Assembly: GCF_003334305.1 (NCBI RefSeq) | Contig: NZ_QOWS01000009.1 | Origin: Escherichia coli | Lineage (GTDB): Bacteria > Pseudomonadota > Gammaproteobacteria > Enterobacterales > Enterobacteriaceae | Direction: 5' to 3' (one strand) | DNA length: 64,000 nt | Shown: positions 29,390 to 33,833 of the stretch, piece after piece | Numbering within the stretch: the first letter of the stretch is position 1 | Layout: every line of letters starts with the position of its first letter | The notes under the pieces: model-generated | What the model was told of the DNA's origin: nothing | The model's database searches: none | The model's input: the letters and a program-made list of their open reading frames with translations, nothing else | Translations under genes and position numbers: made by a program

Positions 29390-30574
29390 TTAAACGGGCT
29401 GCCCCTGATGCGACATCCGCGTCGCCAGCGGCAGCCAGCACAGCACGATCAACAATCCCATTAAGGTCATCAACAACCCCAGGCTGCCCTGACCGGTTTG
29501 CGGCAACATCGCAGAGAGCGACGCCAGCACGCCGGAACCAATGTTTTGCAGACCGCCGACCAGCGCGCCAGCCGTGCCCGCCAGGAAGGGGAACGGCTCC
29601 ATCGCGCCGCTGGTCGCCAGCGGAAACAGCATCCCGGCACCGAAAAAGAACAGCGCGGCGGGAACGAGCAGCGTCCAGACATTCATCACGCCAAACCAGT
29701 CGGGGATCCACATCAGCAAGCCAGCCAGCAGGCAGCAGATAACCGACTGCCACATTAACGTGGAGAAGCGTTTATTGGGACGTCCGGCAAACCATGCGCC
29801 AAAAAACGCTGCCGGAATCGGCAGAATAAACAAAATACTGACCGTCATACTGCTCAGCCCTAACACCGCGCCCATCAGCACGCCGGAGCAGGCTTCAAAG
29901 GCGGCAATCCCGGCCAGACCGCCAATCAGCATCAGCAAATAACAGTTAAAACCGCTGTTACCGAAAAGCGTTTTATAACTGGTAAGCAGGCGCGTGCGCG
30001 GTGCATCGACCGGACGCGTTTCCGGCATCCAGCGGGCCATACTGAAGGTCACACCAGCACAAAGAACCAACAAAAAGAGATAACAGGCGCGCCAGTTCCA
30101 CATCGTATCCAGCAGACCGCCGATTAGCGGTGCGAGCAACGGACTGACGAGAATCCCCATGTTTAACAGGCTGTTAGCATGGCGCAACTGTGTCCGTTCA
30201 TATAAATCTCGCGGCAAAGTACGCGCCATTACGCCGCCAACGCCGGTGCCCATCCCCTGCATCGCGCTGGCGGCAATCAACACCGTCAAACTGGAGGTCG
30301 TGACCGCGACCAGCGTTGCCAGCATAAAAATGGACATTCCGACGAGGATCACCGGTCGGCGGCCCACGCGGTCGGAAATCGGGCCATAAAACAGCTGTGA
30401 GACACCGTAAGTCAGCAGATAAGCGCCCATTACGCTCTGCACCGCCCCTTCACGGACGTTGAGATCGCGCGCCATATCGGCAATAGCTGGAATATAAATG
30501 GTTTGCGCCATCTGACCGACGGCCACGAGTAATACCAACATCAATAACAAATTGACGTTTCTTTGCCTTTTCAT
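29390..30574 (-). CDS. emrD: Multidrug efflux MFS transporter EmrD
   Basis: Track ORF 29390..30580; start at MKRQRNVNLLLM to give 394 aa. Confidence 0.9.
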   Translation of the reverse strand: MKRQRNVNLLLMLVLLVAVGQMAQTIYIPAIADMARDLNVREGAVQSVMGAYLLTYGVSQLFYGPISDRVGRRPVILVGMSIFMLATLVAVTTSSLTVLIAASAMQGMGTGVGGVMARTLPRDLYERTQLRHANSLLNMGILVSPLLAPLIGGLLDTMWNWRACYLFLLVLCAGVTFSMARWMPETRPVDAPRTRLLTSYKTLFGNSGFNCYLLMLIGGLAGIAAFEACSGVLMGAVLGLSSMTVSILFILPIPAAFFGAWFAGRPNKRFSTLMWQSVICCLLAGLLMWIPDWFGVMNVWTLLVPAALFFFGAGMLFPLATSGAMEPFPFLAGTAGALVGGLQNIGSGVLASLSAMLPQTGQGSLGLLMTLMGLLIVLCWLPLATRMSHQGQPV

Positions 30575-30763
30575 TATCACGGATGCTTTTATAAAAATAA
30601 TTAGAATAAGTCACTACGCATTCCCATAAATGCGGGAGAGGAATCTATCACATTGATGAATGTTAGCCAGATATACGCCAGGAATGGGGAATTGTTTAGC
30701 GGCAGAATATGTAAACAAAAGCGGCAATAAATGTTGCCGGGAGGGATTACGTGCGAACTGTAA

Positions 30764-30861
30764 CCCTCTCCCCAAAGGGGCGAGGGGGAAACCACCGTTC
30801 CCTTTCAGAAAATGAGCTAAACATTGCACGGGACGGTCCCCTCGCCCCTTTGGGGAGAGGG
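30764..30861. repeat. Inverted-repeat element: 24-bp perfect arms separated by about 50 bp
   Basis: ccctctccccaaaggggcgagggg (30764-30787) is the exact reverse complement of cccctcgcccctttggggagaggg (30838-30861). Confidence 0.7.
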
Positions 30862-30944
30862 CTAGGGTGAGGGGCACAGGCAGCGCAGGTGCAAACATTC
30901 TGCTGGTAGAAGAAGCCCCCAACTCCAACCCGCACGCTAAATAT

Positions 30945-30974
30945 AAAAGGGGAGCGGTTACCCGCTCCCCTTTG
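30945..30974 (-). terminator. Rho-independent terminator of tisAB (bidirectional hairpin)
   Basis: aaaaggggagcgg-tta-cccgctcccctttt about 20 nt downstream of the tisB stop. Confidence 0.7.
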
Positions 30975-30992
30975 GTGCGACTTGAATCTGAA

Positions 30993-31082
30993 TTACTTCA
31001 GGTATTTCAGAACAGCATCAAGCAGTTGCAGTGCTGCAACAATGAGTTTGAGGATAAGAATGGCGATATCCACCAGGCTCAT
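30993..31082 (-). CDS. tisB: SOS-induced type I toxin TisB (29-aa membrane peptide)
   Basis: Minus-strand translation MSLVDIAILILKLIVAALQLLDAVLKYLK with AGGAG SD; too short for the ORF track. Confidence 0.85.
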   Translation of the reverse strand: MSLVDIAILILKLIVAALQLLDAVLKYLK

Positions 31083-31338
31083 ACGCGTCTCCTGTGGTTC
31101 AGGAGCACTGCCAGCTGACGTACCTTTCCGCTGCCTGTTGCCAGCTGTTGTGCACGCGGTATCTTAAGGAGAAACGTTGTGCTTGTTGACATAACACAGT
31201 GTGCTCACGCGGGGTTAAGGCGCTGACGGCACCACCCGTTTCAGCCAGGACTTAGTGCGCCGGGTAACGATGCGGCCCCCGCATAACACATTGCGTACAG
31301 TGATATTATAGAAGTTTACTGTATAAATAAACAGTAAT

Positions 31339-31354
31339 ATTTGGACAAAACGCA
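31339..31354. promoter_or_regulatory. LexA box (SOS operator) between the divergent tisAB and istR promoters
   Basis: CTGTATAAATAAACAG fits CTG-N10-CAG; a perfect TATAAT -10 for the leftward tisAB promoter lies about 10 bp away on the minus strand. Confidence 0.75.
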
Positions 31355-31442
31355 AACTGTGATCGATACTCAACTATGCCCTAAATACGTCAAAATTCGT
31401 GCCGAAATTGCGCGTTCTGCGCGGAACACGTATACTTTCAGT

Positions 31443-31518
31443 GTTGACATAATACAGTGTGCTTTGCGGTTACCAGCCGCAGGCGGCTGATGAAACCTCG
31501 CTCCGGCGGGGTTTTTTG
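31443..31518 (+). ncRNA. istR: IstR-1 antitoxin sRNA (longer IstR-2 isoform would start upstream, near 31370-31380)
   Basis: About 75-nt unit ending in an intrinsic terminator (GC-rich stem plus tttttt at 31512-31517); its 5' 20 nt ttgacataatacagtgtgct is near-identical to 31189-31208 in the tisAB leader, so the two RNAs are complementary; TATACT -10 at about 31432. Confidence 0.6.
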
Positions 31519-31646
31519 TTACCTGCAATTCAGTACAAAACGTGATCAGCCCCTCAATTTTCCCTTGCTGAAAAATTTTCCATTGTCTCCCCTGTAAAGC
31601 TGTGCTTGTATAAATATTGTTAAACACAAAACCAACAAGGTCCCCA

Positions 31647-31745
31647 ATGACTACTTCCATGTTCAACGCAAAACTACTACCAACTGCGCTATCCGCCGCA
31701 GTGGTCGTCGTGCGTGTGGTGGTGGTCGTCGGCAATGCGCCGTAG
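31647..31745 (+). CDS. ivbL: ilvB operon leader peptide (Val/Leu-rich)
   Basis: MTTSMFNAKLLPTAPSAAVVVVRVVVVVGNAP, 32 aa; located by hand. Confidence 0.85.
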   Translation: MTTSMFNAKLLPTALSAAVVVVRVVVVVGNAP

Positions 31746-31769
31746 GGACTGGAACAACACACGATTCCA

Positions 31770-31806
31770 AAACCCCGCCGGCGCAAACCGGGCGGGGTTT
31801 TTCGTT
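31770..31806 (+). terminator. ilvBN attenuator terminator
   Basis: aaaaccccgccggcgcaaaccgggcggggttttt hairpin plus T-run between ivbL and ilvB. Confidence 0.75.
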
Positions 31807-31850
31807 TAAGCACCTCCCGGAAAGTCGGCCCAGAAGAAAAGGACTGGAGC

Positions 31851-33539
31851 ATGGCAAGTTCGGGCACAACATCGACGCGTAAGCGCTTTACCGGCGCAGA
31901 ATTTATCGTTCATTTCCTGGAACAGCAGGGCATTAAGATTGTGACGGGCATTCCGGGCGGTTCTATCCTGCCTGTTTACGATGCCTTAAGCCAAAGCACG
32001 CAAATCCGCCATATTCTGGCCCGTCATGAACAGGGCGCGGGATTTATCGCTCAGGGGATGGCGCGCACCGACGGTAAACCGGCGGTCTGTATGGCCTGTA
32101 GCGGACCGGGTGCGACTAACCTGGTGACCGCCATTGCCGATGCGCGGCTGGACTCCATCCCGCTGATTTGCATCACCGGTCAGGTTCCCGCCTCGATGAT
32201 CGGCACCGACGCCTTCCAGGAAGTGGACACCTACGGCATCTCTATCCCCATCACCAAACACAACTATCTGGTCAGACATATCGAAGAACTCCCGCAGGTC
32301 ATGAGCGATGCCTTCCGCATTGCGCAATCAGGCCGCCCAGGCCCGGTGTGGATAGACATTCCTAAGGATGTGCAAACGGCAGTTTTTGAGATTGAAACAC
32401 AGCCCGCTATGGCAGAAAAAGCCGCCGCCCCCGCCTTTAGCGAAGAAAGCATTCGTGACGCAGCGGCGATGATTAACGCTGCCAAACGCCCGGTGCTTTA
32501 TCTGGGCGGCGGTGTGATCAATGCGCCCGCACGGGTGCGTGAACTGGCGGAGAAAGCGCAACTGCCTACCACCATGACTTTAATGGCGCTGGGCATGTTG
32601 CCAAAAGCGCATCCGTTGTCGCTGGGTATGCTGGGGATGCACGGCGTGCGCAGCACCAACTATATTTTGCAGGAGGCGGATTTGTTGATAGTGCTCGGTG
32701 CGCGTTTTGATGACCGGGCGATTGGCAAAACCGAGCAGTTCTGTCCGAATGCCAAAATTATTCATGTCGATATCGATCGCGCAGAGCTGGGTAAAATCAA
32801 GCAGCCGCATGTGGCGATTCAGGCGGATGTTGATGACGTGCTGGCGCAATTGATCCCGCAGGTGGAAGCGCAACCGCGTGCAGAGTGGCACCAGTTGGTA
32901 GCGGATTTGCAGCGCGAATTCCCGTGTCCAATCCCGAAAGCGTGCGATCCATTAAGCCATTACGGCCTGATCAACGCCGTTGCCGCCTGTGTCGATGACA
33001 ATGCGATTATCACCACCGATGTGGGTCAGCATCAGATGTGGACCGCGCAAGCTTATCCGCTCAATCGCCCACGCCAGTGGCTGACCTCCGGTGGGCTGGG
33101 CACGATGGGTTTTGGCCTGCCTGCGGCGATTGGCGCGGCGCTGGCGAACCCGGATCGCAAAGTGTTGTGTTTCTCCGGCGACGGCAGCCTGATGATGAAT
33201 ATTCAGGAGATGGCGACCGCCAGTGAAAATCAGCTGGATGTCAAAATCATTCTGATGAACAACGAAGCGCTGGGGCTGGTGCATCAGCAACAGAGTCTGT
33301 TCTACGAGCAAGGCGTTTTTGCCGCCACCTATCCGGGCAAAATCAACTTTATGCAGATTGCCGCCGGATTCGGCCTCGAAACCTGTGATTTGAATAACGA
33401 AGCCGATCCGCAGGCTGCATTGCAGGAAATCATCAATCGCCCTGGCCCGGCGCTGATCCATGTGCGCATTGATGCCGAAGAAAAAGTTTACCCGATGGTG
33501 CCGCCAGGTGCGGCGAATACTGAAATGGTGGGGGAATAA
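31851..33539 (+). CDS. ilvB: Acetolactate synthase I large subunit
   Basis: 562-aa ThDP-enzyme ORF downstream of the ivbL attenuator. Confidence 0.95.
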   Translation: MASSGTTSTRKRFTGAEFIVHFLEQQGIKIVTGIPGGSILPVYDALSQSTQIRHILARHEQGAGFIAQGMARTDGKPAVCMACSGPGATNLVTAIADARLDSIPLICITGQVPASMIGTDAFQEVDTYGISIPITKHNYLVRHIEELPQVMSDAFRIAQSGRPGPVWIDIPKDVQTAVFEIETQPAMAEKAAAPAFSEESIRDAAAMINAAKRPVLYLGGGVINAPARVRELAEKAQLPTTMTLMALGMLPKAHPLSLGMLGMHGVRSTNYILQEADLLIVLGARFDDRAIGKTEQFCPNAKIIHVDIDRAELGKIKQPHVAIQADVDDVLAQLIPQVEAQPRAEWHQLVADLQREFPCPIPKACDPLSHYGLINAVAACVDDNAIITTDVGQHQMWTAQAYPLNRPRQWLTSGGLGTMGFGLPAAIGAALANPDRKVLCFSGDGSLMMNIQEMATASENQLDVKIILMNNEALGLVHQQQSLFYEQGVFAATYPGKINFMQIAAGFGLETCDLNNEADPQAALQEIINRPGPALIHVRIDAEEKVYPMVPPGAANTEMVGE

Positions 33540-33542
33540 GCC

Positions 33543-33833
33543 ATGCAAAACACAACTCATAACAACGTAATTCTGGAGCTCACCGTTCGCAACCATCCGG
33601 GCGTAATGACCCACGTTTGTGGCCTTTTTGCCCGCCGCGCTTTTAACGTTGAAGGCATTCTTTGTCTGCCGATTCAGGACAGCGACAAAAGCCATATCTG
33701 GCTACTGGTCAATGACGACCAGCGTCTGGAGCAGATGATAAGCCAAATCGATAAGCTGGAAGATGTCGTGAAAGTGCAGCGTAATCAGTCCGATCCGACG
33801 ATGTTTAACAAGATCGCGGTGTTTTTTCAGTAA
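33543..33833 (+). CDS. ilvN: Acetolactate synthase I small (regulatory) subunit
   Basis: 96-aa ACT-domain ORF. Confidence 0.95.

Follow-up and report, generated by a model that had tools for sequence, protein, structure and literature searches.

The element at positions 31647–31806 (plus strand) of the Escherichia coli DNA analysed here, a stretch of 64,000 nucleotides of chromosome referred to below as the window, is almost certainly the ribosome-mediated transcription attenuator of the ivbL-ilvBN operon. It is a known element. As an attenuator, ivbL has been textbook material since 1982, and practically all E. coli genomes carry its annotation. The initial annotation, made from the letters of the window, had already read the region as the ivbL leader and attenuator upstream of ilvBN and had placed it correctly; its coordinates are accurate, with the ATG of ivbL at 31647 and the U-tract running up to 31807. 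The ivbL attenuator is also in use as a Val/Leu biosensor in metabolic engineering, and it carries little weight as a discovery. Our analysis confirms the reading, the coordinates and the mechanism with explicit structures. It additionally makes two modest points, namely that the core of the switch is invariant across the Enterobacterales, and that simple thermodynamics finds no protector hairpin of the sort assumed by the classical model.

The mechanism that we envisage runs as follows. Transcription would begin about 27 nt 5′ of ivbL, and a ribosome would translate the leader before RNA polymerase has finished transcribing it. Given an ample supply of charged Val-tRNA and Leu-tRNA, the ribosome would reach codons 29–32 and the stop codon, and there cover segment 2 of the leader RNA (31736–31747). 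Segment 3 (31769–31785) would then pair with segment 4 (31788–31801), giving the terminator with its U-tract, and transcription would stop before ilvB. Were the ribosome to stall at the CUA Leu codons or within the Val run (codons 19–27), segment 2 would be exposed and would pair with segment 3 as the latter emerges. With segments 2 and 3 paired, no terminator would form and the polymerase would read into ilvBN. Transcription-translation coupling and the response to amino acids, like the start site and the activation by CRP discussed below, are parts of this picture that we infer or take from the literature. The ORF and its codon bias, the two exclusive structures with their dependence on a simulated ribosome footprint, the conservation and the identity of ilvB and ilvN are shown directly by our analysis. 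Published reporters speak to the amino-acid response. Fusions of ivbL to gfp, carrying the K-12 allele, are repressed by Val and by Leu, whereas six further amino acids, for which the leader has fewer codons, do not repress them, and placing Thr or Pro codons where the regulatory codons stood re-targets the response (PMC11187965). The operon has been described as controlled through ivbL by attenuation (PMC11347164), and a passage of PMC3783181 citing Friden et al. 1982 likewise attributes attenuation to ivbL-ilvBN. The initial view of the region as a transcription attenuator accordingly has behind it genome annotation, family models and the K-12 reporters (PMC11187965), as well as the dependence on ribosome position described below.

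The leader ORF and the genes that it precedes

The ivbL ORF occupies 31647–31745 on the plus strand, with ATG at 31647 and TAG at 31743–31745. Its 32 codons, the length given in the initial annotation, translate as MTTSMFNAKLLPTALSAAVVVVRVVVVVGNAP, and a Shine-Dalgarno sequence, AAGG, lies 5′ of the ATG at 31637–31640. The RefSeq feature ivbL, "ilvB operon leader peptide IvbL", maps exactly to these coordinates by way of strain E2863, which is 100% identical here. The peptide also matches the NCBIfam equivalog NF007579 over its full length (1–32 of 32) with 78 bits against a cut-off of 60 (E = 3.7e-22).

The codon content of the leader is strongly skewed. Codons 19–28 (31701–31730, plus strand) form the regulatory Val run, VVVV-R-VVVVV, in which nine of ten codons specify Val and a single Arg interrupts. 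The three Leu codons lie within 31674–31691 on the same strand, at codons 10 and 11 (31674–31679) and at codon 15 (31689–31691), the last of these being specific to the allele of this strain. All three are CUA, a rare Leu codon in E. coli. There is no Ile codon. One detail of the initial annotation needs amending in this light: the string AAVVVVRVVVVVG, quoted as a run of Val and Leu codons, corresponds to codons 17–29 and contains Val, Ala, Arg and Gly. The Val part of that description stands, and the Leu part does not, the Leu codons being those upstream.

On the same strand, 105 nt past the ivbL stop codon, begins the regulated gene, ilvB (31851–33539), which encodes the large subunit of acetolactate (acetohydroxyacid) synthase I and scores 1089 bits against the equivalog NF006016 (cut-off 870). 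Next comes ilvN (33543–33833, plus strand), for the small subunit of the same enzyme, with 185.5 bits against NF006036 (cut-off 128). A scan of 30500–32500 with Rfam at a permissive E-value returned no family for the ilvB leader. The only matches that fell on the ivbL terminator, to STnc310 and P6, are on the minus strand and below the gathering score, and we regard both as noise.

Conservation across the Enterobacterales

Homologues were sought by scanning the genome collection once with a plain pattern for the run of Val-Arg-Val codons. The scan returned 120 stretches, 37 of which encode a short peptide of the form ...LL.TA...AVVVVRVVVVVG.AP, ending in AVVVVRVVVVVG(N/S/K/I)(A/T)P. In every one of the 37, ilvB starts 91–163 nt past the stop codon of the leader. 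Nearly all come from named Enterobacterales, including E. albertii, Serratia, Yersinia, Dickeya, Pectobacterium, Brenneria and Morganella. The matches to the GTN-run pattern from outside the Enterobacterales, most of them long ORFs of GC-rich genomes, were set aside as chance occurrences. As the homologues were picked through the Val-Arg-Val motif, conservation of that motif among them is circular.

In the alignment of 38 leaders, the start codon (ATG or GTG) and the AGG of the Shine-Dalgarno sequence line up in all 38. The tandem CUA-CUA (31674–31679; alignment columns 55–60) is likewise invariant at the nucleotide level in 38 of 38, while the codons around it vary freely. Invariance extends to the terminator arms, CCCCGCCGGCG and GCGGGG, and to the GCGCCGUA segment. 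Across the 38 genomes, 95% of the cells in the terminator are paired and 10 of its 13 pairs are invariant; in the main stem of the antiterminator, 5 of 7 pairs never vary. A covariation test of these two stems on the 38 sequences accordingly found conservation and no covariation, because the stems never, or nearly never, vary, and its outcome counts neither for nor against the two structures. The small hairpin that the antiterminator encloses does covary, and the same antiterminator is recovered in most single-sequence folds of the other genera.

From Escherichia to Morganella, the approximately 75 nt between the end of the Val run and the U-tract are almost invariant, even at bases of loops and spacers that are required by neither hairpin. 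As a long shot, the abundant attenuated leader transcript (~185 nt) might also act in trans, perhaps by pairing with or sponging GcvB or some other sRNA bound by Hfq, and the F6/L15 and L6/P15 alleles described below might also tune the sensitivity to Leu between E. coli lineages.

One leader differs in its spacing to the downstream gene. In Kluyvera genomosp. 1, ilvB lies 163 nt past the leader stop, as against 91–111 nt in the other 36 genomes, which suggests an insertion of ~55 nt between terminator and ilvB.

Two mutually exclusive structures and the position of the ribosome

A G+C-rich hairpin begins 24 bases past the ivbL stop codon. Its stem (segments 3:4; 31769–31781 with 31788–31801) has 13 pairs and one bulge, with a folding energy of −21.6 kcal/mol, and a U-tract, UUUUUCGUUU, follows at 31798–31807. 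This intrinsic terminator (31769–31807, plus strand), conserved in 38 of 38 leaders, bears out the strong hairpin and T-run described in the initial annotation. It was missed in a consensus terminator scan, probably on account of the bulged G at 31790. In K-12, a 3′ end termed ivbL_t has been reported by Term-seq (PMC9023263).

Folding from the last leader codons onward, with the 3′ arm of the terminator omitted, yields the antiterminator (segments 2:3; 31736–31785, plus strand; −21.9 kcal/mol). Here UGCGCCG..GGG (31736–31747) pairs with CCC..CGGCGCA (31774–31785), enclosing a small hairpin at 31750–31769. Terminator and antiterminator share seven bases, 31769, 31774–31776 and 31779–31781, and therefore only one of them can exist at a time. 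Folding the RNA for mutually exclusive hairpins was the check that the initial annotation had proposed; both hairpins are present, and their energies are nearly equal.

How would the ribosome choose between them? Equilibrium folds of the complete leader under ribosome masks invariably yield the terminator as soon as segment 4 is included. This implies a decision made co-transcriptionally, and we therefore assessed the competition on nascent transcripts, taking an RNA that ends at 31786 and blocking a 28-nt ribosome footprint codon by codon. With the A site at any of codons 1–26, the antiterminator has a probability of 0.98. Codon 27 lowers this to 0.80 and codon 28 to 0.16, and for codon 29 through to the stop it is 0. 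With segment 4 present and segment 2 not already paired, the terminator has a probability of 0.87. In this model, then, the simulated position of the ribosome selects the structure in the direction that attenuation requires.

Is segment 2 protected?

There is one respect in which equilibrium folding departs from the classical scheme. The behaviour in which lack of translation gives termination is not reproduced, because the antiterminator forms with a probability of 0.98 on the nascent transcript even with no ribosome in place. It is a reasonable possibility, though not the one that we favour, that the same element works as a two-state switch, thrown by ribosome occlusion alone and with no 1:2 protector hairpin. 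The antiterminator would then be the default, and termination would follow only if a ribosome is at codons 28–33 in time. The plateau at 0.98 up to codon 26, and the same value with no ribosome, are what such a switch predicts. Additionally, before segment 3 is made, all that holds segment 2 is a local hairpin of 4 bp, CGGC-AAUGC-GCCG (31730–31742, plus strand; invariant in 38 of 38), which occupies part of the segment and has a probability of ~0.98 on a transcript ending at 31770.

The only conserved candidate for a protector comes from RNAalifold, in which the middle of the Val run with its Arg codon (31709–31722) pairs with 31730–31742. That this pairing is recovered at all speaks against a switch with two states, as one-sided changes leave it intact, with C-G in place of U-G in 5 sequences and G-C in place of G-U in 10. 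In the E. coli ensemble, however, the hairpin (−10.3 kcal/mol) has a probability of ~0 at any ribosome position and under all conditions tested, and is thus not populated there. The full-length MFE structure offers a second candidate, a long-range pairing of the Shine-Dalgarno region with bases past the stop codon. It is 80% paired but indistinguishable from what shuffled sequences give. Two considerations of a more general kind weigh on the side of a protector. Kinetic traps are invisible to equilibrium calculations, and a 1:2 hairpin is part of the classical attenuators, trp among them. In trpL this hairpin is well established, whereas for ivbL we found no thermodynamically convincing 1:2 partner. 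On the modelling, either a kinetic trap invisible to equilibrium tools acts on segment 2, or the element is effectively a two-state switch operated by ribosome occlusion alone. This is a question about a detail of the mechanism and leaves the identity of the ivbL-ilvBN attenuator as it was.

RNAalifold also predicts a hairpin within the coding region (31683–31702, plus strand; ACUGCG with CGCAGU), in which segment 2 takes no part. It is supported by covariation. The pair 31685–31700 is C-G in 25 sequences, U-A in 11 and A-U in 1, and both of its bases are synonymous third positions, linking Thr13 (ACU/ACC) with Ala18 (GCA/GCG). This hairpin may be a pause hairpin for RNA polymerase.

The promoter, the 5′ UTR and post-transcriptional control

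In the alignment of 38 Enterobacterales loci, three conserved blocks stand out in the 150 nt upstream: (A/T)GTGATC, CCATTGTC and CTGTGCTTGTATAAAT. The first contributes to a putative cAMP-CRP site, CGTGATCAGCCCCTCA (31541–31556, plus strand), in which the GTGATC half-site (31541–31546) is conserved and the second half is degenerate in this strain. A search of the window with the CRP consensus pattern gave 187 matches against ~210 expected, which is not above chance, so the assignment stands on cross-species conservation and the literature. Control by cAMP is named in a title, that of the Friden et al. 1982 paper cited by PMC3783181. The other two blocks make up the promoter core (31580–31615, plus strand), conserved across genera, and the CTGTGCTTGTATAAAT block contains the −10 sequence TATAAA at 31609–31614. 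From this arrangement, transcription would start at about 31620–31622. A consensus promoter scan did not flag the ivbL promoter, which would fit a weak, activator-dependent −35 element. Taken from the sequence, the conserved blocks fit an activator-dependent promoter and an attenuated leader of ~185 nt.

The 5′ UTR (31620–31646, plus strand) comprises a CA-rich tract, AACACAAAACCAACAA (31622–31637), and the Shine-Dalgarno sequence. A CA-rich tract is expected of a GcvB seed target, and a published study (PMC11347164) reports that the sRNA GcvB binds ivbL close to its AUG and counteracts RNase E, with RNase E sites in the spacer between ivbL and ilvB. One could suppose from these observations that ilvBN is controlled mainly at the post-transcriptional level, through GcvB on the 5′ UTR and RNase E in the spacer, with the hairpin serving as an ordinary partial terminator or as a stabiliser of the RNA. 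The report that the ivbL_t terminator is weak in a heterologous assay (PMC9023263) is in line with this. We nevertheless consider it very improbable. Such control does not account for a reporter response to Val and Leu that depends on codons and is re-targeted by codon swaps (PMC11187965), and throughout the order the Val run, the CUA-CUA pair and both competing structures are conserved. The simplest view of the sRNA layer is that it adds to attenuation and does not replace it.

Alleles within E. coli and comparison with other attenuators

The ivbL-ilvBN attenuator of K-12 is the same system. Both the locus and its synteny (emrD-tisB/istR-ivbL-ilvB-ilvN-uhpA) agree, as does the length of 32 codons, and the Val run, the terminator and the antiterminator are identical. 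The IvbL peptides differ at two residues, both in the N-terminal half. K-12 has L6 and P15; the present strain has F6 and L15, owing to the changes CTC to TTC and CCA to CTA at window positions 31662 and 31690. From codon 16 to ilvB, the two strains are identical. Each allele has three Leu codons, and in F6/L15 all of these are CUA. The two alleles are common natural variants, since exact 81-mers place F6/L15 in 1525 and the K-12 allele in 1871 of ~5418 complete genomes. A third type of IvbL, F6/P15, occurs in strain AR_0081 and has only two Leu codons.

A close functional parallel is the ilvL leader, which like ivbL has 32 codons. It belongs to the ilvL-ilvGMEDA (ilvGEDA) attenuator of E. coli and, like ivbL, is a multivalent leader-peptide attenuator for the synthesis of branched-chain amino acids, a comparison for which we draw on the mention of Lawther and Hatfield 1980 in PMC3783181. 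ilvL has another locus and another peptide, with codons for Ile, Val and Leu, and responds to all three amino acids, whereas ivbL is without an Ile codon; ivbL-ilvBN, unlike ilvL-ilvGMEDA, is additionally reported to be cAMP-dependent. With trpL, leuL and hisL, the ivbL leader shares its layout, in which a short ORF with many cognate codons is combined with hairpins 2:3 and 3:4 as alternatives and, ahead of the first biosynthetic gene, with an intrinsic terminator. The sequences of those leaders are unrelated to that of ivbL, and each senses a single amino acid.

The genomic neighbourhood

In strain E2863, RefSeq gives the gene order yidF, emrD, ysdE, tisB, ivbL, ilvB, ilvN, uhpA. The ivbL leader is not a chance feature, because its folding is better than that of 200 of 200 shuffles (z = −3.48), because the motif followed by ilvB recurs in 37 other Enterobacterales, and because the leader with its surroundings, 341 bases in all, is matched in 5419 of 5426 complete E. 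coli genomes, in some of them with 100% identity and always under an ivbL feature. That the ORF arose by chance in a 5′ UTR, with the hairpin ending some upstream transcript, might be entertained in view of the 104 ORFs of at least 20 aa in the surrounding 7 kb, but the upstream istR has its own terminator (31500–31517), the peptide, start codon and Shine-Dalgarno sequence are conserved in 37 other genomes, always ahead of ilvB, and IvbL passes its equivalog model, and conservation and family results together refute the idea, leaving it practically no probability.

The istR sRNA itself (31388–31517, plus strand) is a strong, full-length Rfam match beside ivbL (RF01400, 149 bits). Its end at the terminator lies ~100 nt ahead of the start site that we propose for ivbL. 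Together with the toxin ORF tisB (30993–31082, minus strand), istR makes up the tisB/istR-1 type I toxin-antitoxin locus, directly 5′ of the ivbL promoter. Further upstream, between emrD and a palindromic repeat, is ysdE, a small protein gene of 24 aa (30656–30730, plus strand) that is annotated by RefSeq in E2863. The repeat is a G+C-rich inverted repeat at 30761–30864, with arms of 27 nt that are 96% complementary and lie 50 nt apart; a third related copy follows 100 nt further on, at 30961–30980. These copies yield spurious microRNA matches in Rfam, and the repeat has the look of an intergenic element of the palindromic-repeat kind, situated between ysdE and tisB.
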